This document shows positions 8,659 through 62,840 of a stretch of 64,000 nucleotides of DNA, one piece after another. Under the pieces are notes generated by a model. It was not told the DNA's origin and did no database searches. It saw only the letters and a list, made by a program, of their open reading frames with translations. Position numbers and translations under genes: made by a program. The number at the start of each line of letters is the position of its first letter. Position 1 is the first letter of the stretch. Location: assembly GCA_951406725.2 (NCBI GenBank), contig OX597824.1, positions 57,350,001-57,414,000 of the forward strand, read 5' to 3'. This stretch comes from Octopus vulgaris. Lineage: Eukaryota.

Positions 8659-8989
8659 GCGGGGAGTATCATAGCCATGTGTTGAAAGGAATTCTTAGAG
8701 GTTTGGATAATTCACCTTTGGAAACATGGGTGGTTCGTTCAACATCCTTAAATAACCCTTATTCAGGGACCTTTTGAGCGGGATGGGTTACTCGACCAGA
8801 AGAAAATTCTAACTAGGCCCCACCTGCAAGGTCATGTGCTGTTTATCTTGATATGAAATCACCATGTCCCACACATATGGTTATGATGCATGTGCCTAGT
8901 GTACCCTTATCAGACGGGTAGTCATGATGGGTATACCGGGTATATTTTACCTCAGTGTCACTTTGATGGCATGCACTACTCTCTCACTC

Positions 8990-8990
<1 letters not shown>
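8659..8990 (+). mobile_element. (TAA)n-flanked non-coding retroposon, 5'-truncated copy
   Basis: Closely matches 57712-58047; (TAA)n on both sides. Confidence 0.85.
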
Positions 8991-9021
<31 letters not shown>

Positions 9022-9055
9022 TACCTATTATTATTATTTTTGTTGTTGTTGTTGT

Positions 9056-9608
9056 TGAGTGAGAGAGCAGTACATGCCATCAAAGTGACACATGGACAAA
9101 CTATACGAAACTCAATATACCCAACATGACTACTCATCTGATAAGGGTACACCAGGCACATGCGTCACAACCATATGTGCTCCACATGCTTATCTAATAT
9201 CAAATTAAACGTATGATCTTATAGATAGGGCCCAGTTACAATTTCTTCAAGTCAAGCTGCTCATCCCGCTCAAACGGTCCTTGAATAAGGGTTGTTTAAG
9301 GATGTTGAACGAAATACCCTTGTTTCTAGAGGTGAATTATTGAAACCTCCAAAGAATTCCTCTCAATACATGGCTATGATGCTCCCCTCACTACTTCTGC
9401 TCGTGATCAGAGATGCACATATCGTCAGCCACTAAGAGACGTGCTCAACTGGTTATGGTCAAACAGCTGACAAGCAAATCTGAGGTATTGACAGAATATT
9501 TGCTGTAGCCCATCTTTTCCACTAAGGCAAAACATGTAAATGATAATATTTCTAATCTGTTAAGATCAGAAGCCATGAGAGTCACTGCCTGGTACTACAT
9601 CGGGAGAT
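9056..9608 (-). mobile_element. (TAA)n-flanked non-coding retroposon, inverted copy
   Basis: Reverse complement of 57501-58047; tail-to-tail with 8659-8990. Confidence 0.85.
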
Positions 9609-13344: not shown

Positions 13345-13489
13345 TATATATATATATACAACAGGCTTCTTTCAGTTTTTGCCTACCAAATCCACTCACA
13401 AGGTTTTCGTCGGCCCGAGTCTATAGTAGAAGAGACCTGCCCATGTGGGACTGAATCCGGAACCATGTGGTTGGGAGGTAAGCTACGTT
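13345..13489 (-). mobile_element. tRNA-derived SINE family A, body (head displaced to 15634-15668)
   Basis: Reverse complement agcttacctcccaaccacatggttccggattcagtcccac...gtgagtggatttggtaggc, matching 41161-41325. Confidence 0.9.
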
Positions 13490-15633
13490 ATTCCATTATA
13501 TTGGCCATAAAGGCCTTACACAGAGAAAGGAAGCTACGGGCTGGACACAGACATAATGTTATGTGAATGAAAAATGAAAATGATGATTAATGGTGGAAAA
13601 AGCGACACCTGCCGATCGTTCTTTCCGAGAACATTGTTCTCTTATATTATTCATGAGGCAACAAACCTCTTGCATTGTTCCCAATATTCAATAACAAAAT
13701 GAGACACGGAGCCTCTTACCTTTTTTGTCCGAACTAGGAACTTTCAAAAACACTAAGGCTTTTCAACCTCTTATCCATATTCCTCCCCAACATCGCTTGT
13801 GACCTCATCCTCTGCCATCACCCACGCCTCATTCCAGCACAAAGCGGGTGCCGTGTCGGCGTCGACCGGCCACATGTGATATTCCTCATTGAGTCCCTCC
13901 AGCCTACGCAACACGGGCAACGTTATGACCTCCACAGCTATCTGCAGAGACCATTCGGGATCCCGTGTGCAGGCTAAAAGTACTCCCTTATGGTGCCTTT
14001 CTAGCACCTTCTCCACCTCTCCGCCTCTGTATGAGAAGATCAATAATAGTCACTTCTACCGTCGGTAGCACAATTTCAACCGACGGTGTTTCTTCCTCTG
14101 CCTGTGGCACAATCCCCACCGACGAGGTTCCGACTCATTCTGGTACTATTTCACCGACTGCCGGCAATGTCCCGTTTCTCTTCCTCTTCCTCTTTTTTTT
14201 CTTCTCATCTGAGTGAGGGTGCGTCTCTTCCGTGACCGGGAGATTCGTCTCCACTCCCTCATCTCTAGGATACTTCGGTGAGCATCCATTGTTGCTCACC
14301 TTCTTTCTCATGTGGTCCTTCTTTGAGGAGTCCTCTACATCCTCGGCTGCCTTCGTTCCCTCTTCTACAGCGGTCTCAACCAACTGCTCCAGGGCGTTAC
14401 TTTGTTCCTGGGGAAGTTTTTCTTTATATGGCCAGGCCCCGGGCATCGATGATACCTGGTGGCGAGCCTCAAGAATCACCGGGTACCTGCACATGGCCAT
14501 TTTCAAAAGATTTGGAAATACCAGATTTTTGGCTGATTGGGTCCAGAGGGTCAAACCACTTTTAACCCCACCCAATCAGCTGCAGGTAAAATTTTTACAT
14601 TGGGGAGCTTGGCTCCGCTGCCACCCAGACCCTGGCAGATAGTGTCCTCTATCCACTCGGGTTCTATTCCGCGTGGCAAACCACAGACTCAAGCCCTCAT
14701 CGACGTCCTTCCACAATACGTGTGAAGAAACAAAATCTCTCTGCCCTCCAATGGCTAGCTAGCAAATTTGCGAGCCTCCTCAGGGGTGTCAAATAGCAAC
14801 AACACCATTGCATATTTGACACCCCTGGAGATGAATTTAATAGTTGGCAGATACTCTGCCAACTCCCTTTCGATAGCAGTTTTTTTCAAATAGGGCGATG
14901 GTGTCGAGCGACTTGGAGTAGGTCCTCAACACCACCGTCCTCTCTTCGAAGTCTTTCAACCACTGTTTGGTTGGTACAATTTCCCACTCCAAAACATTGT
15001 GCTTGTTCTTTGCCATGTTTTTTTTAAAATAAAAAGTCCCAAAACAGTTCATGATTAAAATTGTAAAAAAAAGAAGAAAGAAAAGGAAAGAAATCAAAAG
15101 AAAGTCACAACAAAACGGAAGGAAGAAAAAAGAAAACAGTTCAATAAAAAGAAACTCGCAAAAAATATAGAAGAAAAGAAAGCAACAGTTCAAAAAAACA
15201 CAGCAAGAAATCTTCTAGCCACGCGGTAATCCATGCCAATTTGGTACTCCGATTTGAACCTGGAACGCCACCGCTTGAACACACCTTTCACAAAAATTGG
15301 TAAAAGAAAGTGTATCTTCGATAAATTCTCACAAATTTTGAAAAAAAACAAACTATTCACTAAAAGTGAACAATTTTTTGGCAGCGAGATACGCCCCCAA
15401 ACAAAACTTCTATTCACTCAACTGCAGGCAGACCAGAGTCCAGAATCCAGTGAGGACTTCTTGTTTGTAAAAATATAATTACGGCAAACAACAAACCCCC
15501 ACTGGACCCAAAAAAAACAAAAGTCTTACCTTACAGTTGAACTTTTTTTAATCACTATTTCACCGGCTTCAAACCTGCGTCGTAACTTTAATCAGTGATA
15601 CGAACAACACTGACGACGAAACGTATGCACAGT
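13490..15633 (-). mobile_element. ORF1-only Tx1-like retroelement, copy 1, inserted in a SINE head
   Basis: Homologous to 60571-62754 over 5' leader and ORF; ~280 bp 3'UTR; no RT; flanked by the two halves of a SINE. Confidence 0.8.
13771..15016 (-). pseudogene. Frameshifted ORF1-like protein (putative RRM-like N-terminus, CCHC knuckle, charged linker, conserved C-terminal domain)
   Basis: MAKNKHNVLEWEIVPTKQWLKDFEERTVVLRTYSKS...FISRGVKYA...GLPRGIEPEWIE...YRGGEVEKVLERHHKGV..DPEWSLQIAVEVIT; several stops and frameshifts. Confidence 0.8.
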
Positions 15634-15668
15634 GGGAAGAAATCCTCTTACCACACAGCTACATCTAT
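15634..15668 (-). mobile_element. SINE family A 5' head (A-box) separated from its body
   Basis: Reverse complement tagctgtgtggtaagaggatttcttccc versus family head tggctgtgtggtaagtagcttg. Confidence 0.7.
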
Positions 15669-23559: not shown

Positions 23560-25134
23560 CTAGCATTATGACCCTTCGTTGCCGGGTCATAGTGCTAGTG
23601 CATGTATATATGTGTATATACATGTGTACATATTACATGTACATCTATATATATACATCTACACATAAAATACAAAATACAAAGTTATATCTTGATATCG
23701 CTAGTGATAACAATACTCAAAATATATAACAAACTGGAATTGTAGGCCCGTCTCTTGCAATTTCGATCAATTGTATCTTGTCCTCCCTCTTGTATAGAAG
23801 TGTGGCTACAATCCAGCCTACCTCTACTTCTGGGGGGACATTTTAAATTTTTATCCGGGATGTCCTACGTCCCAGATATAAAGGTAAAAATAATATATTT
23901 CCACTTTGCAAGGTCCGAGTCGAGTACTCCCTTCTAGGTTGACTCGAACCTTGCTTCTATTGTGGCGAATTTACCGCCTCTGGTTAGATATCTTTCATAG
24001 TCGCACCCAGACACTTTTCGATGGTGCTTTCCTCCAGGTGTTCAAATCTTTTTTTCCTCTACATTGCATACTTCATAGACAATAGTCTTTTCTTTAATTT
24101 AATTTTTTATTTCGTTTGGTGATGTTATCCTAGATTCACCGTCTTTGTCGGTGATCAATCCGAAATAGGTTTGTATTTCTTCCATTTTAATTTTAATGAA
24201 ATCGCGCCCGCCGACGGCTGCAGCGAAATTCATTTTTGGACTTTCTTCTATCGAAGGCATTCTAACAAAAATGCTTCCGTATAAACGGGGGAAATATTGT
24301 CAATTTCCCCAAACAGGGCTACAATTCAATTTTTAAACAATAACCAAAACTCCTTCTCCCAAAAGGGGAGGGTTATGGTTTACAGTTATTTAACAAATGC
24401 AACACAACAACGTTTCCCTTACGAGGAACCAACAAACGTGATAACAATAGTTAAACAGTAGTAATAATAACAAACCTTACGGTGAATCAAAAAGCAGTAC
24501 GCAGTTGAAGCTATAGTCCTTTATGTATAAGAAATAAACCAACAGCAGTACTCAGTAGAAGCGGCTGTTCGATAAAACAGACATTACATACAGCCAAACT
24601 TCATATAGATAATGCTAGCTAATTAGCAGATAATCTAATGTAAAAGCCGTGGTAAACGGTATGTGCACAGCTCCATCTGGACTATTCCATTTCTGCACAC
24701 TAATTTTATTTTTGATTTATTCCCCTTCATGTGAAACCAAGTCACTCATGCAATTTTATAGCAATTGCTATTTTTACTTTTGTTATGTTACGATTATATT
24801 ATACTTTAGTTTGATTTTAATTATTACTTACTACATATAATTCAATTGTTATTATTATCTCTAATTTTTATTGTTAAAGTGAAAGTATCTGACATAAAAT
24901 AGAGAGATGTTTTTGTTTCACTTTTAACACGTAATACTGAAATAGTGGAGAAGATATGATATTGCTATGGGCTCGTCCTAGGCAAGAAGTTGAACATTGT
25001 TTTTGCCTATGAAACTACATGGACCCTAAGTAAGGCATGTGTAAAATTTGAATGAAATTGGTTGTGTAGTTCTTAAGTTTTAGGGAAACACACAGACAGA
25101 CAGACACACATTCTCAGTTTTATATATATAGAGA
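23560..25134 (-). mobile_element. Helitron-like element interrupted by a Tx1-like ORF1 fragment
   Basis: Minus-strand start tctctatatatataaaactgagaatgtgtgtctgtc; hairpin ctagcattatgaccc..gggtcatagtgctag with CTAG at the other end; pairing of the two ends is inferred. Confidence 0.5.
23735..24185 (-). pseudogene. Distant homolog of the Tx1-like ORF1 (N-terminal half)
   Basis: KEKTIVYEV...YLTRGGKFATIEARF...LYLGRRTSRIKI*NVPPEVEVGWIVATL aligns with EDRTVVLRT...FMSRGVKYATVRLLF...TYYGRRLTKARLCGLPPGIKPEWIEETI. Confidence 0.7.
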
Positions 25135-51001: not shown

Positions 51002-51054
<53 letters not shown>

Positions 51055-51058
<4 letters not shown>

Positions 51059-52565
51059 AAACCGGTGAAATAAAAGAATTAGACCAAAGCCAAACTTACA
51101 AATACTTAGGAATCCATGAACTAGATAAGACACAACACACACAAATGAAAGAGAAAATTAAAAAGGAATATTATAGACGAGTTAGATCAATACTAAAAAC
51201 AGAGCTCAATGCTAAAAACAAGATAATAGGTATTAACACTTTAGCTGTCCCAGTTATAAGTTACAGCTACAATATCCTTAACTGGACACTAAATAAACTG
51301 ACCAAAATAGATAGGAAAACAAGAAGAATAATGACAGGATCTAGGATGCATCACCCAAAATCTGACATAGAAAGACTATATATACAAGTTATAGAAGGTG
51401 GTAGAGGCCTTATACAGCTGGAAAACTACTATAAAATAACCACCATAGGACTACAAAAATATCTACTTCAGAAGGAAGGAAAACTGATACAAATAGGGGC
51501 AAAACACGAGCAAAACAAAAAGCTGTTCTTAGTATTTAAGGAAGCTGACAAATACAAATAAGAAATCATACCACCTAACAAATATGAAGAAGAAGAAGAA
51601 GAAGAAGAAGAAGAAGAAGAAGAAGAAGAAGAAGAAGAAGAAGATACAACAAAAGCTATAAAACAAATGAAATCCAAACTAAAACTAGAACAGCAAAGAA
51701 CCATGATAAAACGATGGCAAGAAAAGCCCTTTCATGGTAAATACTGGACTAAACTAAATGCAAAAGAAATAGACAAAGAAAAATCCCAGCTATGGTTGAG
51801 AAGCTCAGGACTCAAAGCAGAAACAGAGGGATTTTTAATTGCAACACAAGACCAAAGCCTCCCCACCAGAAATTACCAAAAAAACGTATGAAAAGAAATA
51901 TAACAAGTAACTGCAGAATATGTGGAAATGGACAAGAAACAATAAATCATATTATCTCTGGCTGCCCAGTCCTGGCTAAGAAGGACATGACAGAGTTGGA
52001 ACCTACATACACTGGAAGCTATGCCAACATTATGGAATAACAACAGAAAAAAGATGGTATAGGCACACACCAGAAAAGGTCACAGAAAACGAGAAAGCAA
52101 CCATACTCTGGGATATGCCGATACACACAGAGAGAGAAATTAAGGCCAACAGACCAGATATAGTTGTCAGAGATCATGAAGAAAAAAAATGCTTTCTAAT
52201 TGATGTATCAATACCGGCAGATGACAACGTGTCTCTAAAAGAAATGAAGAAACTTTCAAAATACAAAGACCTGGAAATAGAGGTAACCAGACTGTGGAAT
52301 CTAAAAACAGAAACAATTCCTATCATAGTAGGTGCATTAGGCATGATAAAAAAATATTCAGACAAATACATAACAAAAACACCAGGACTTACAAACATAT
52401 ATAACATACAGAAAATTGCACTACTAGGCACTGCACACATCCTACGCAGAACACTTTCAATACAATAACTATCAGAGCATCACAACAAATCACAGCACAT
52501 ACCCAAGGCACACAGAGCTGCGCTCGGTAGTGAAGTGAAAGCACGCTATAAAATTAAAATACGGA
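51055..52565 (+). mobile_element. R4/Dong-type RLE retrotransposon, family D1, 5'-truncated copy
   Basis: ORF pieces with GGRGL, CRIC..ETINHIISGC zinc finger, RPD..IDVS..KY endonuclease; (TAA)n on both sides. Confidence 0.93.
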
Positions 52566-52595
52566 ATAATAATAGTAATAATAATAATAATAATG

Positions 52596-52654
<59 letters not shown>

Positions 52655-52655
<1 letters not shown>

Positions 52656-54228
52656 GATACAAGCGGGGATTGACCAACTGATGGCACTACCAGAAAGACA
52701 ATGACAATGCACGGTGTCCTCCAGCCTAAGGCAAATGTACACATGCTCAACACGAAGACAGGTAAAAGTAAAGGAAAAATGAGAGAAACATCCAACGTTA
52801 AAATTGACCAGCAGAATGTCATAAAGGAGTTAGAACCAGCGGAGAGCTACAAATACCTAGGGGTATTTGAATCAAACATTTAGTGATGAGAGAAAAAATC
52901 AGAAGAGAATATTATCGCAGAGTGAGATCAATACTTAAGACTGAGATGAATGCAAGCATAGGATCGAAACGATCTATACTGTAGCCATACCAGTCATGAC
53001 TTACAGTTTCAATACCATTAACTGGTCATTTACTGAAATACGTAAGCTTGACAGAAAAATACGAAAATTGTTGATAATGCATAGAATGCACCACCCTAAG
53101 GCAGATACAGAACGACTTTACCTGCCAAGAAAAGAGGGTGGCCGTGATCTTTTACAACCGGAATTAACAATGAAGATTGCTACAATTGGCCTAGATACCT
53201 ACCTGAAAAACTCTGATGACTAGATGTTAAAACTGCTCTCAAAGCATGAAAACAAGAAAGCATCATACTCAGTAACAAAACAGGTAAAGGAATTAAGTGA
53301 TTTCCAAATACAACAAATTCCAGAATTAGACATACTAGAAATAAGCACAGAAAAAGCTAAGCGTATGAAAACACATGCTAAAACTGCTGCCTTAGATATT
53401 CTTACTGATAAATGGCAAGAAAAACCTCTCAATGGCAAATACCCAAAGAGAGCTAATACTGCCGATGTTGACAAAGCCCTTACCAATCAATGGTTAATGG
53501 CTTTTGGCTTAGAATCAGAAACAGAATGGTTTATCTATACCTACCCACAAGGAACTACCAGGCAAACATATTAAAGAACGGTAGTAGCCCAAGATGTCGT
53601 GTATGTCAACAGTAAAATGAGATCATTCATCATGTTGCCACCATGTGCAGTCTTCTTGCGCCTACAGAGTATCTCAACAGGCATGATAGAACAGCACAAT
53701 ATATTCACTGGTTCCTGCCCCATGATAAGAACTGGTGGGAACACAAAACCACCTCCAGTGCTTGAAAATGATCACATCTGGAACTTTATTCAAACTGACA
53801 GAAAGATAGATTCGAATAGGCCAGACATTGATATAAATGTTCCAATCAACATAAATGTATATGCCAAGACCTACCAAAAACTGAGCAAGTATAAAGATCT
53901 TGATATAGAAATTGGCAAAATGTGGAACCTCAAAACTAAAACAATTCCTGTTGTCATAGGTGCCCTAGGAATGATAGCAAAAGGGGCTGATTCCTACCTT
54001 GCTCAGATACAAGGAAACCCCAAAATGGCAGTAATTCAAAGGATAGTGCTCATGGGAACTGCCCATATCCTACGTAAAATACTGTCTATGTAATCTCAAA
54101 TTTTAAAACAAACTCAATTTTTAATGGTTTCTTAAACATTCTCTATGTGAACTTCTAACTTGTTGTCTCTTGAGGACTCTGGGTAAGACTTAGAGTCAAC
54201 TTGTATAAATGCAAAGCAAAAGTCTAAC

Positions 54229-54230
<2 letters not shown>
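52655..54230 (+). mobile_element. R4/Dong-type element, family D2, decayed
   Basis: YKYLGV, MHHPKADTERLYLPRKEGGR, NRPD..KLSKYKDL..IPVVIGALG; (TAA)n flanks. Confidence 0.9.
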
Positions 54231-54309
<79 letters not shown>

Positions 54310-54313
<4 letters not shown>

Positions 54314-56590
54314 CTCAGCATCTGAGCAACTTTGGATCCCCATAACAACCGAAGAGGTCACCCAGGCACTGCAAAGACTAAGCAACTGGAAGGCACCTGG
54401 GCATGACAAGATACCCAACTTCTGGTTGAAATATCTAACAGGAATGCACAAAAAGCTGGCTGAAAACTTTAACAACATACTAGCAGAGCCAGAGACAATG
54501 CCAGAATGGCTCACGAAGGGGAAAACCATCTTAATTCCTAAATCAAATGAGACAGCAAAACCAGAAAACTACAGACCAATAACCTGTCTCCCTACAATGT
54601 ACAAGGCATTTACTGCAGTGATATCGCAAAGGTTGAACAAGCACCTGGACGAAAACAACCTGTTTCCAGAAGAGCAGAAAGGATGCCGCAAAGGCTCATA
54701 TGGCTGTAAAGATCAACTAATGATTAATAAAGCCATAACTGAAGACAGCCACAGAAAGAAGAAAAGCCTCAGTATGGCCTGGATCGACTACAAAAAGGCG
54801 TTTGATAGCATCCCCCACACATGGATCCTCGAAACACTAGTCATTAACAAAGTAGCATCAACAATTATAAAATTCATAGGACACTCTATGAATAAATGGC
54901 AAACAGTGCTATAGCTCCAAACAAAAGAGGGACTCATGAAAACCAAAGCCATCCCCATTAGAAGAGGAATATTCCAGGGAGACACGCTCTCTCCACTCCT
55001 TTTCTACTTGGCACTGTCACCTCTATCTGATATGCTAAATAGAACTGGATGCGGATATAAATGTTACGGCAAAACGATCAGCCACCTTTTATATATGGAT
55101 GAGCTAAAACTATACGCTGCAAATGACAAACAGCTGGAAACACTATTAAAGACAATTCATGGATTTACCAAAGAAATAGATATGAAGTTTGGATTAGAAA
55201 AATGCGCCAAAGTAACCCTGAAAAAAGGAAAACTAGTTAAGAGTAGCAACATTACACTAGATAAACCCAATGAAATAAAAGAATTAGACCAAAGCCAAAC
55301 TTACAAGTACTTAAGAATCCATGAACTAGATAAGACACAACACACACAAATGAAAGACAAAATAAAAAAAGAATATTTTAGAAGAGTTAGATCATTACTA
55401 AAAACAGAGCTCAATGCTAAAAACAAGATAATAGGTATTAACACTTTAGCTGTCCCAGTTATAAGTTACAGCTACAATATCCTTAACTGGACACTAAATG
55501 AACTGACCAAAATAGATAGGAAAACAAGAAGAATAATGACAGGATCTAGGATGCATCGCCCAAAATCTGACATAGAAAGACTATATATACAACGTATAGA
55601 AGGTGGTAGAGGCCTTATACAGCTGGAAAACTACTATAAAATAACCACCATAGGACTGCAAAAATATCTACTTCAGAAGGAAGGAAAACTGATACAAATA
55701 GGGGCAAAACACGAGCAAAACAAAAAGCTGTTCTCAGTATTTAAGGAAGCTGACAAATACAAACAAGAAATCATACCACCTAACAAATATGAAGAAACAA
55801 CAAAAGCTATAAAACAAATGAAATCCAAACTAAAACTAAAACAGCAAAGAACCATGATAAAACGATGGCAAGAAAAGCCCTTTCATGGTAAATCCCAGCA
55901 ATGTTTGAGAAGCTCAGGACTCAAAGCAGAGACAGAGGGATTTTTAATTGCAACACAAGACCAAAGCATCCATACCAGAAATTACCAAAAACATGTAATG
56001 AAAAGAAATATAACAAGTAACTGCAGAATATGTGGAGATGGACAAGAAACAATAAATCATGTTATATCTGACTGCCCAGTCCTAGCTAAGAAGGATTATA
56101 TTCACAGACATGACAGAGTTGGAACCTACATACACTGGAAGCTATGCCAACATTATGGAATAACAACAGAAAAAAGATGGTATAGGCACACACCAGAAAA
56201 GGTCACAGAAAACGAGAAAGCAACCATACTCTGGGATATGCCGATTCACACAGAGAGAGAAATTAAGGCCAACAGACCAGATATAGTTGTCAGAGATCAT
56301 GAAGAAAAAAATGCTTTCTAATTGATGTATCAATACCGGCAGATGACAACGTGTCTCTAAAAGAAATGGAGAAACTTTCAAAATACAAAGACCTGGAAAT
56401 AGAGGTAACCAGACTGTGGAATCTAAAAACAGAAACAATTCCTATCATAGTAGGTGCATTAGGCATGATAAAAAAATATTCAGACAAATACATAACAAAA
56501 ACACCAGGACTTACAAACATATATAACATACAGAAAATTGCACTACTAGGCACTGCACACATCCTACGCAGAACACTTTCAATACAGTAA
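54310..56590 (+). pseudogene. Reverse transcriptase-restriction-like endonuclease polyprotein, disrupted
   Basis: WKAPG.D, YRPITCL, IDYKKAFDS, GIFQGDTLSP, YMDE (catalytic DD changed to DE), in-frame stop at 54912, frameshift near 56310. Confidence 0.93.
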
Positions 56591-56684
56591 CCATCAGAGC
56601 ATCACAACAAATCACAGCACATACCCAAGGCACACAGAGCTGCGCTCGGTAGTGAAGTGAAAGCACGCTATAAAAATAAAACTA

Positions 56685-56687
<3 letters not shown>
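54310..56687 (+). mobile_element. R4/Dong-type element, family D1, longer copy with RT and RLE
   Basis: Near-identical to 51055-52565 over the shared part; (TAA)n flanks. Confidence 0.95.
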
Positions 56688-56746
<59 letters not shown>

Positions 56747-56747
<1 letters not shown>

Positions 56748-57412: not shown

Positions 57413-57500
57413 AATAATAATAATAATAATAATAATATCGGCGAGAAACGGAAGAAAATTTGAAGAAAGAAGGAAAAAACATAATAATAATAATAATAAT

Positions 57501-58047
57501 GCAGTACCAGACAGTGGCTCTTATGGCTTTTGATCTTAACTGATTGGAAGTGTTATCATGTACATTGTTTTGTCTTGGTATAAAAGATGGGCTACAGCAA
57601 ATATTCTGCTCAATACCACAGATTTGCTTGTCAGTTGTTTGACCATAACCAGTTGAGCATGTCCCTTAGTGGCTGACGATATGTGCATCTCTGATCACGA
57701 GCAGAAGTAGTGGGGGAGCATCATAGCCATGTGTTGAGAGGGACTCTTTGGGGTTTGAATAATTCACCTCTGGAAACATGGGTGGTTCTTTCAACATCCT
57801 TAAACAACCCTTATTCAGGGACCTTTTGAGCGGGATGGGCTACTCAACCTGAAGAAAATTCTAACTGGGCCCCACCTGTAAGGTCATGTGCTGTTTATCT
57901 TGATATGAGATCACTATGTCGCGCACATATGGTTGTGATGCATGTGCCTGGTGTACCCTTATCAGACGGGTAGTCATGATGGGTATATTGGGCTTCGTAT
58001 ATTTTACCGCAGTGTCACTTTGATGGCATGCACTGCTCTCTCACTCA
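57501..58047 (+). mobile_element. (TAA)n-flanked non-coding retroposon
   Basis: Third copy of the 8659-8990 / 9056-9608 family, lying between TAA runs. Confidence 0.88.
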
Positions 58048-58061
58048 ATAATAATAATAAT

Positions 58062-60509: not shown

Positions 60510-60533
60510 TACACACAAGTATGGCTGTGTGGA

Positions 60534-60570
60534 GGCGCAGGCGTGAATGTGTGGTAAGAAGCTTGCTTCC
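60534..60570 (+). mobile_element. SINE family A 5' head (target of the adjacent element)
   Basis: ggcgcaggcgtgaatgtgtggtaagaagcttgcttcc versus 41161 ggcgcaggagtggctgtgtggtaagtagcttgtttacc. Confidence 0.85.
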
Positions 60571-62754
60571 ACTGCGCATGTGCGAGTAATTGTGATGTTT
60601 GGCACCAAAGCGGTGAGACGTGCTTTTGAAGCCGTCTCGAACTGAAAAATTTTGAAGCTCCACTGTAAGTAAGATTCTGTTTTTTGGGTCCAGTGGGAAT
60701 TTTTGTTGAGAATTTTTTGTACACGCAGGAAGTCTTACTGGATTCAGAATTCTGGTCTACTTGCATGGAGCGAATATTTTTTCTCGCTTAATTGTGAGAA
60801 TTTTTGTTTGGGGGCGTATTCGTCTTCCTAGTTAGTGGTTTATGTTAAGTGAATATTTTTCTCACTTAATTATGAGAATTGTTGCTTGGAGGAATATCGT
60901 GCCAACTAAAAATTTGTTCACTTTTTGAAGAATTAAAAAATAACTGTGAGAACTGCTGTTTGGGGGAGTGTCTTTGCCTCCGAAGATTGAACGATTTGTA
61001 TACCAGTTTTTGTGGAAGTTGTGTTCCAGTTGTAGCATTCCGGGTTAAACCTGGGCCGGGAGTACCGAATGGCCGGAATATTTTTTTTTCTGTGTTTCTG
61101 AACTATTGACTTTCTTTCTTCTAAACTTTATTTGACTTTCTCTTTTTCGTGAATTGTTTCCTTTTCTCCTTTCCATTTTATTGTGACTTTCTTTTGATTT
61201 CTTTTTTCTTCTCTCGTTTTATTTTGAACATATTTTCGAACTGTTAAAAAAGAAGGGAAACATGGCAATGAAAAAAGACAAAGTATTGGGGTGGGAGATT
61301 GTAACGCCCAAAAAGTGGTTGAAAGACCGTGAAGATAGGACGGTGGTGTTGAGAACCTACTCCAAGTCATTCGACACCATCGCCCTATTCGAAAGACTGC
61401 AATTGAAAAGGAGTTGGCAGAGTATTTGCCAACAATTAAATTCATGTCCAGGGGTGTCAAATACGCAACGGTGCGATTGCTATTTGATACCCTTGAAGAG
61501 GCTCGCAAATTATGAGTCAGCCCTTGGATGTAAAGAAATTTTGTTTCTTCTCACATATTATGGGAGGAGGTTGACGAAAGCTCGGCTCTGCGGGTTGCCA
61601 CCCGGGATAAAACCCGAGTGGATAGAAGAGACTATCCGCCGGGGTCTGGATGGCAGCGGAGCCAAGCTCCTTAATGTGAATTTTTTTCCTGTGGCTGATT
61701 GGCTTGGGTCAAAAGCTATTTTGACCCTTTGGACCCAAAAAGCCAATCTGGTTTTACCAGATTATTTTAAAATGGCCGGGTGCAGGTACCCGGTGATTCT
61801 TGAAGGTTGCCCCCTCCTCAGGTATCATCGGTGCCTGGAGTCTGACCATATAAAGAAAAACTGTCCTCAGGAACAAAGTAAGGTCCTGGAGCAGTTTAGT
61901 GAGACATCTGTAGAAGAGGGAATGAATGCGGTCGAGGAGGCGGAGGACTCCGCAAACAGGGGCCGCAAGAGGAAGAAGGTGAGCAACAATGGGTGCTCAC
62001 CGAAGGATCCTAGGGATGAGGATGGGGAGGCGAATCTCCCGATCACGGAGGAGACGCACCCTCCCTCAGTTGAAAAGAAAAAAGAGGAAGAGGAAGAGAA
62101 ACGGGACATTGCCGGCAGTCGGTGACATATAGCGGAATGTCCCGGAACTATGTCGGTTATGGTTGTGCCACCGGCAGGAGAAGAGATACCGTTGGCGGGA
62201 ACTGTGCCACAAACGGAAGAATTGGATATCCCGCCCCCGGAGGAAGACGAATTATTGATCTTCTTCTATAGAAGCGGAGAGGTTGAAAAGGTGGTGGAAA
62301 AGCACCATAAGGGAGTACCTTTAGCCTTCACACAGGATCCCGAATGGCCTCCGCAGATAGCTGTAGAGGTCATAACGTTTGACGTGACGTTTAGGCTGGA
62401 GGGGCTCAATGAGATATATCGCTTGTACCCGGGCGACGCCGACATGGAACCCGCTTTGTTCTTGAATGAGGCGTGGAGGATGGAGGAGGATACGGGCACA
62501 AAATATGTTGAGGGTGAGTTATAAATTGTGGCACAGTGTGACACAAACATTTGATAATAGGCACTTCGCCTTCTTTCTGAACTCCCGGGTGTCAACGTGG
62601 TCTGCTCTGCAGGCGGCTAGATATTTGACTGGGGTCCGGGAGGAGGAGGAAGGGAAAAGTGGTAGTGTATTTTTGATATTTGATTAACTTTTTGATTTTT
62701 ATGTAAGAAAAGAACCTGTGATTGTAATGCCCCCACAGCCAATTTGATAACATA
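60571..62754 (+). mobile_element. ORF1-only Tx1-like retroelement, copy 2, with 15 bp TSD
   Basis: TSD aagaagcttgcttcc (60556-70) / aagaagctttcttcc (62755-69); ~690 bp leader, ORF, ~230 bp 3'UTR, no RT. Confidence 0.85.
61262..62524 (+). pseudogene. ORF1/gag-like protein with CCHC knuckle and conserved C-terminal domain, frameshifted
   Basis: ORFs 61262-62125 and 62150-62524; YHRCLESDHIKKNC (CX2CX4HX4C with first C changed to Y); RKRKK basic patch; comparison with copy 1 shows compensating frameshifts near 61395-61530. Confidence 0.82.
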
Positions 62755-62769
62755 AAGAAGCTTTCTTCC

Positions 62770-62840
62770 CGGAGGGAGGAGCCCATGCCCTGGACAGAGA
62801 ACGAGGAGTGGCCTTCGCAGGTGACTACGAAGATCATATC
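62770..62840 (+). mobile_element. Short fragment of a related ORF1-family element directly after the TSD
   Basis: EPMPWTENEEWPSQVTTKII aligns with VPLAFTQDPEWPPQIAVEVI. Confidence 0.55.

Follow-up and report, generated by a model that had tools for sequence, protein, structure and literature searches.

ORF1-only retroelements at one fixed position of an abundant octopus SINE, and an L1/Tx1-type LINE with the same target as their likely source of insertion enzymes

The window analysed here, a 64-kb stretch of Octopus vulgaris DNA taken as a whole, contains two dead ORF1-only retroelement copies, both at one fixed position of an abundant octopus SINE. Their insertion was likely carried out by the endonuclease and reverse transcriptase (RT) of a full-length L1/Tx1-type LINE for which this position is also the target, a reading built on sequence comparison. 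A first-pass annotation had proposed this in outline, as a non-autonomous ORF1-only family at one SINE position with a target-specific APE-RT partner, and that core proposal withstood three attempts at refutation, described with the family A loci below. Within the window, the 20-nt motif of the SINE head occurs four times, against 0.00 expected.

Copy 1 lies on the forward strand (60534-62840). A SINE head with the A-box part (60534-60570), preceded by a short partial head repeat at about 60520-60533, ends in the 5' target-motif copy AAGAAGCTTGCTTCC (60556-60570), and the element begins at 60571, as had been claimed; by analogy with the young partner family, whose junctions are given below, the last 3-6 bases of this motif are likely part of the element's own 5' end. 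The element, of the family we call A, extends to 62754 and comprises a leader of about 690 bp, ORF1 and a 3' UTR of 230 bp, with no poly(A). Its coding part had been read as an ORF1-like frame of about 420 aa with a CCHC knuckle; a single frame of 421 codons is indeed present (61262-62524), 58% identical to an intact natural copy, but it is broken, with residues 44-87 in another frame, a stop at 62123-62125, and a degenerate knuckle (61823-61864) whose first Cys, intact in relatives, has been lost. A Pfam search of the window ORF gave only a weak CX9C match, and sequence comparison found no match to the partner ORF2 inside the frame, in line with the reported lack of endonuclease and RT. The leaders of many families start with GCGCATG-type palindromes or with GG after CTTCC (window 60571-60584; L019, L044, L052, L221), which we presume to be look-alikes of NRF1 and ETS promoter motifs.

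Towards its 3' end, copy 1 retains a decayed 4-bp hairpin (62728-62740) of a kind common to all families and to the autonomous LINE described below. The 14-of-15 repeat of the motif that follows (62755-62769) had been taken for the target-site duplication (TSD) of this copy. The repeat is real, but behind it come the first 71 bp of a second piece, B (62770-62840), the remainder of B and the SINE body being absent from copy 1. Since the same internal motif and B stand at the same place in ten further loci (L002, L004-L008, L011, L012, L015, L030), the repeat is a fossil motif belonging to a composite subfamily, and its identification as the TSD is ruled out.

Copy 2, on the reverse strand (15662-13359), is 78% identical to copy 1 over 1.55 kb in a self-comparison of the window and is complete at both ends. 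A SINE head remnant (15635-15662), with a diverged 5' motif at 15649-15635, is followed by the diverged element (13489-15634), whose ORF1, starting at 15016, is broken and whose 3' hairpin is intact; a diverged 3' motif (13474-13488) then leads into the SINE body, from the B-box part to the tail (13473-13359). With the head on one side and the body on the other, this copy, originally placed at 13490-15633, does occupy the same SINE position.

We searched the octopus's own genome assembly (2.8 Gb, 227 contigs) for family A, scoring 40 of 2254 first-look candidates, a number that is not a copy number, and fetching 30 loci that were picked by element interior and not by flanks. Three findings could have overturned the proposal: random flanks, chance deletion of ORF2, and a SINE-like head that is part of the element with no body downstream. 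All 28 loci with a 5' end begin on the SINE motif, so the flanks are not random; no ORF2 lies behind family A, the 3' end and SINE body coming a few hundred bases past the ORF; and the SINE body follows, by pattern, at 21 of 25 3' ends. Of the remaining four, two have a partly deleted body (L022, L025) and two stop within B (L008 and L001, the window copy). In most composite loci, the true 3' end and SINE body are found about 500 bp further on. Piece B itself is a short member, about 0.5 kb, of the same superfamily, codes for a stretch resembling the ORF1 C-terminus, and stands alone behind a SINE head at L035 and L039 (91-95% identical). On the simplest reading, B was resident first and A entered at its 5' motif; read-through from A into the downstream B would then have fixed the two as one composite subfamily, which includes the window copy.

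A pattern for occupied 3' junctions gave 93 exact matches (control 0), and an element-type 3' end precedes the motif in 30/30 of the junction loci fetched. These carry many families, from 0.06 to 2.2 kb long; poly(A) was found at none of the 30 3' ends, and the terminal hairpin region is present in all except L041. Mixed tandem arrays of autonomous and ORF1-only units occur at L006, L097, L125, L126, L130, L225 and L227, with a single motif between units and no SINE head there. Long arrays of either ORF1-only units (period about 2 kb) or autonomous units (period 5.4 kb) were also noticed at C1:223.69-223.71, C5:78.74-78.76, C10:101.17-101.19 and C9:2.66-2.68 Mb.

The target SINE is short, of very high copy number, and ends in a simple-repeat tail; a 31-nt empty-site pattern matched exactly 63,270 times (control 0). 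Published SINE families of octopus include OK, OR1 and OR2. Among the first 100 empty sites listed, from the start of contig C1 and counted by hand, the variants were T-TTAC (38), T-TAAC (37), A-TTCC (15), T-TTCC (8) and A-TTAC (2), and setting the 93 occupied sites against some 9,500 empty A-TTCC sites gives an occupancy of about 1%. The description of the SINE as tRNA-derived is weakly upheld by an alignment colinear with genomic tRNAs over about 75 nt (best z 5.6; 35 tRNAs, 7 isotypes), on which the motif starts in the D arm and extends into that of the anticodon; it is not upheld by Rfam, where eight weak matches were returned and no tRNA at E up to 10. As for the suggestion that the parent tRNA might be a target, the insertion-site motif is absent from the same 35 tRNAs, the best having 5 mismatches in 15, which lends it no support. 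The SINE contains stretches that we take to be A-box-like and B-box-like, and insertion moves them up to 5.4 kb apart, so that occupied SINEs would likely have lost Pol III transcription. Such promoter inactivation would reach only about 1% of the copies of one SINE subtype, and at that occupancy it is unlikely that the insertions act as a control mechanism on the SINE population.

The predicted target-specific ORF2 partner was found as an intact APE-RT LINE at the same site. The junction locus L031 carried the C-terminus of an ORF2 (zf-RVT) and led to a young LINE of 5.44 kb, with an ORF1 of about 466 aa containing zf-CCHC and an ORF2 of 1133 aa containing Exo_endo_phos, RVT_1 and zf-RVT, these frames being open in several copies; extension of L031 and L055 in search of the full partner gave only 5'-truncated copies. 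A 3'-end pattern made from element bases alone returned 103 exact matches, and the motif follows directly in the first 30/30 and in 47/50 of the copies examined, the last 20 of which were hand-picked as likely truncated or unpaired. The three without it are L205, L207 and L208; at L205, a 5'-truncated copy appears to have missed the SINE and landed, with a 16-bp duplication, in a tandem repeat of another kind whose sequence is similar to the motif. The best solved relative of the partner ORF2 is human L1 ORF2p (E 4e-67). Its APE endonuclease, RT and C-terminal zinc-binding region are all present, and insertion is sequence-specific with a TSD (47/50 3' ends, and paired ends), all features of the Tx1 clade; by these characters the partner is an L1/Tx1-type LINE. 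Neither the 120 homologues listed nor their clusters contain a named Tx1 reference.

Across 25 partner loci, identity between copies is 0.971 in the element and 0.902 in the adjoining SINE body, and this greater divergence of the bodies marks the SINEs as independent targets. The same data bear on a reading without targeting, in which the insert would travel together with its SINE head and SINE body as a single composite element. In its favour, the duplication seen in the window is a fixed internal feature of a composite, and the end of the 5' motif is borne by the element. Besides the more diverged bodies, however, many unrelated 5' ends and truncation points lie behind the same head, and no head separates the units of tandem arrays, leaving this reading hardly credible. 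Older autonomous subfamilies, with an endonuclease 73-87% identical, use the same site (L234-L236, L238-L240). As the young intact LINE resides in the T-type SINE variant whereas the window family is mostly in the A-type variant, the direct driver of the window copies would be an older relative, of which L031 and L235 are decayed examples.

Exact full-length 5' junctions read TAAC in 51/55 cases, the other four coming from a shorter family whose opening bases are identical. Among 56 copies with paired ends, 40 have AAC at both ends, 15 have a TT-type 3' copy with an AAC 5' copy, and one lacks the 5' motif; an extra base is present in the 5' copy in 16 of the 56. Since the 5' copy is still AAC in 15/15 paired copies with a downstream TT-variant target, its final bases come from the element. 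5'-truncated copies are likewise found behind SINE heads, with duplications of 0-16 bp (L034, L181, L186, L202, L205, L206, L209, L210). A uniform 15-bp TSD was considered and rejected, given this range and the element bases carried by full-length 5' ends.

These junctions also allow for the same system to operate with a loosely specific endonuclease, the site being chosen mainly by pairing of a target-like RNA tail with SINE DNA. Consistent with such pairing, there is no poly(A) and the AATAAA end runs straight into the motif, copies of a sister LINE keep the same few bases past AATAAA in different flanks, and L112 combines an A variant in the 5' copy with a T variant in the 3' copy. Yet L112 is the only informative locus for motif positions 1-6; an A-type 5' copy is found too in five family A loci whose 3' copy is A-type and TA-like; and variants at positions 7-9 are common to both ends in L006, L202 and L224, which indicates a true duplication of target DNA at these three loci. 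We consider tail-guided site choice unlikely, and retain a site-specific endonuclease as the preferred reading.

The 4-bp hairpin lies about 15 nt before the 3' end in an alignment of 34 ends, comprising 29 of the 30 junction loci (L041, in which the hairpin region is absent, was left out), the partner, two young families and both window copies. Of 130 cells, 93% are paired, and 18 double changes are seen, a level reached in 0/500 shuffles, related rows inflating these counts; two of five measures (pairs with a double change, and further pair types) were no better than shuffles. Slid controls gave 4-52% pairing, and RNAalifold independently predicts the same helix. By this alignment, the hairpin covaries and is common to the ORF1-only families and the autonomous LINE. 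Together with the shared target and the arrays, it suggests that the ORF1-only families are mobilised in trans by that LINE.

The ORF1 proteins of the ORF1-only families fall into two groups that are about 25% identical. Identity to the autonomous ORF1 is 24-27% for group I and 34-40% for group II, and the latter clusters with that protein in the tree. For the N-terminal ~200 codons, pairwise dN/dS, a comparison between copies that the first-pass annotation had called for, is 0.09-0.31 in 14/14 between-family group-I pairs and 0.19-0.39 in the five unsaturated group-II pairs; most between-group pairs were saturated, and L152 was left out with its N-terminus out of frame. On these ratios, ORF1 of the ORF1-only families is under purifying selection. 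Intact 413-aa copies were found in a family close to A (n = 4, 98% identical).

Low ratios could also be inherited from autonomous parents, if the ORF1-only copies were repeated recent deletions of complete elements. The affinity of group II to the autonomous ORF1 fits with this, as does a 2.0-2.2 kb family (L131-L134, L152) whose first ~15 bases are those of the autonomous LINE, and the protein searches scored the best 150 candidates. Against repeated deletion, group-I ORF1 was found in 0/13 diverged ORF2-bearing loci, the ORF1s present there being 23-35% identical to group I, which itself stands at 24-27% to the autonomous ORF1; the young ORF1-only copies are not only 98% identical but of one structure; and family A has a match at 63% identity in a protein of Octopus sinensis. 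Recurrent deletion thus seems improbable. The group-I ORF1 of L152, in the 2.0-2.2 kb family, suggests an exchange of 5' ends.

A model of the group-I ORF1 from a 13-row alignment (mean pLDDT 60, mostly 70-90 over residues 11-200) has two alpha-beta domains that match tandem-RRM proteins at E ~1e-4. Both ORF1 types contain zf-CCHC, which in the ORF1-only protein is the sole match at E up to 1, with none to Transposase_22; the partner's ORF1 entered this comparison by alignment. An RRM-like pair with a CCHC knuckle defines a type I ORF1, and group-I ORF1 is accordingly a predicted RNA-binding protein of RRM-RRM-CCHC layout, the same fold being predicted for the relatives of copy 1. In the available text of PMC5203782, type I ORF1 (RRM + CCHC) is tied to the Tx1 clade in animals. 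ORF1 homologue searches returned one and two proteins, all from Octopus; one from Octopus bimaculoides (P0219), with a C2H2-finger annotation, has an ORF1-like stretch, at 29% over a quarter of the query, which may reflect a fused gene model or a capture event. CCHC and ZCCHC3-type clusters in the ESM Atlas, at 0.88-0.93, serve as a lead only. The gag of an LTR retrotransposon or provirus was weighed as an identity for this protein and rejected, there being no terminal repeat in self-comparison and a non-LTR partner; PDB profile matches to nucleocapsid proteins are centred on the knuckle (profile positions ~185-210).

The ORF1-only families and the autonomous LINE thus share one site, one polarity and one 3' end. 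We propose that each element is transcribed from its own leader, from a start a few bases inside the upstream target copy, and that ORF1p would coat the RNA of its own element. The partner ORF2p would bind the conserved 3' hairpin and AATAAA end by stringent-type recognition, nick the bottom strand where AAGWAGCTTG begins and prime reverse transcription there, with a second nick up to ~16 bases downstream. In copies with a full-length 5' end, the final part of the target copy has given way to the element's own first bases, presumably during joining. The motif survives at both ends, which allows later copies to stack in tandem.

HAL1 has an ORF1 derived from that of vertebrate-type L1 (Transposase_22), a poly(A) tail and no fixed target, whereas the Transposase_22-type ORF1, poly(A) (0/30 junction loci) and free target are all absent from the octopus families. 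Of the earlier designation as a HAL1-like family, the solitary ORF1 without ORF2 stands; with a predicted RRM-RRM-CCHC protein of type I, the likeness is by analogy only. At Drosophila telomeres, ORF1-only and complete elements, HeT-A and TART, lie head to tail at a shared destination. The octopus arrays resemble them in this stacking, but HeT-A and TART end up at the chromosome end, whereas the octopus elements lie inside a dispersed SINE that was presumably cut by an endonuclease. ORF1-only LINEs are recorded in the L1 (HAL1), CR1 (Ag-Sponge) and Jockey (HeT-A) clades (PMC5786205). As far as the available part of that account goes, the octopus families are alike in having one ORF1 protein, no ORF2 and a presumed reliance on an autonomous partner, and unlike in their predicted RRM-RRM-CCHC layout, lack of a Transposase_22 match and of poly(A), strict interstitial site specificity, and a deep split of ORF1 into two or more groups about 25% identical.

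Target-specific Tx1-clade LINEs include Tx1 in Tx1D, Keno in U2, Kibi and Koshi in microsatellites, and Tx1-Mar in Mariner-N4_AMi, the last with the passenger SINEU (PMC4494074, available text). In this clade, as in the octopus system, an APE-RT LINE inserts with a TSD at a set position in another repeat, non-autonomous passengers use that target too, and tandem insertions flank a TSD. Its targets in that text are DNA transposons, LTR elements, snRNA and 5S genes, satellites and microsatellites, in contrast to a SINE here, and its passengers are non-coding SINEs whereas those of the octopus encode ORF1. Dada elements similarly insert in the anticodon region of Pol III type-2 units (PMC8869645), but are cut-and-paste DNA transposons in real tRNA genes, with no SINE named in the main text. 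Stringent-type 3' stem-loops are known for L1-clade LINE/SINE pairs and, in the accessible account (PMC3472496), likewise combine a 3' end common to autonomous and non-autonomous elements with compensatory stem changes; the octopus hairpin differs in having 4 bp, and its passengers in coding for protein. A 2026 O. vulgaris annotation reports 13 recently active L1-Tx1 families, their targets not described in the text available (PMC13282606). ORF1-only LINEs, and Tx1 elements that target other transposons, were thus known already. In the literature covered (including PMC4824008, PMC4758252 and PMC8967140, in the texts available, with Repbase, subscription papers and supplements outside this scope), we found no SINE-targeting LINE, no site-specific ORF1-only passengers, and no description of a SINE target with dependent ORF1-only families.

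The system extends retrotransposon target choice to another retrotransposon, the SINE acting as a renewable safe harbour, and accounts for a class of SINE-embedded repeats in octopus genomes. With young intact ORF1-only copies and an intact ORF2 in one genome, it offers a testable setting for the long-standing question of why ORF1-only LINEs keep ORF1 under selection, and the short common 3' hairpin and target-like 5' end make clear predictions on RNA recognition and second-strand joining. More broadly, we see an even chance that this is a three-level parasite community, in which a SINE of more than 60,000 copies would be the sole niche of a Tx1-type LINE, itself carrying an ancient, self-standing ORF1-only radiation without an autonomous parent of its own; the passengers would need only a ~30-nt 3' hairpin tail to recruit ORF2p, would bear some of the target sequence at their own 5' end and restore the site with each insertion, and would have followed the turnover of SINE subfamilies. 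If so, nature would have provided, in the intact ORF2p, a site-specific RNA-to-DNA writer that acts in trans and takes a very short tail as its address.

A sister LINE family, with ORF2 about 60-65% identical, was also observed. Its 3/3 exact-pattern matches (L228/L273, L232/L272, L271) are followed by one common flank, distinct from the SINE site and containing a short palindrome, and L231, also in this family, is flanked by other sequence; ARAGORN and Rfam returned nothing on the sister-LINE loci. This LINE may represent a second target-specific lineage, aimed at a different repeat. In the window, a stretch on the reverse strand (23744-24511) matches L228 at 73% identity over 785 bp; it holds the 5' part of a sister L1/Tx1-type LINE, from the leader to the beginning of ORF1, with no SINE motif seen at its 5' end. 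Two decayed RT-bearing non-LTR copies on the forward strand (51052-52624 and 54228-56747) are 90% identical to each other and not close to the partner LINE, and a repeat of about 0.6-0.9 kb, 87-91% identical, is present in both orientations at 8661-9600 and 57499-58061.
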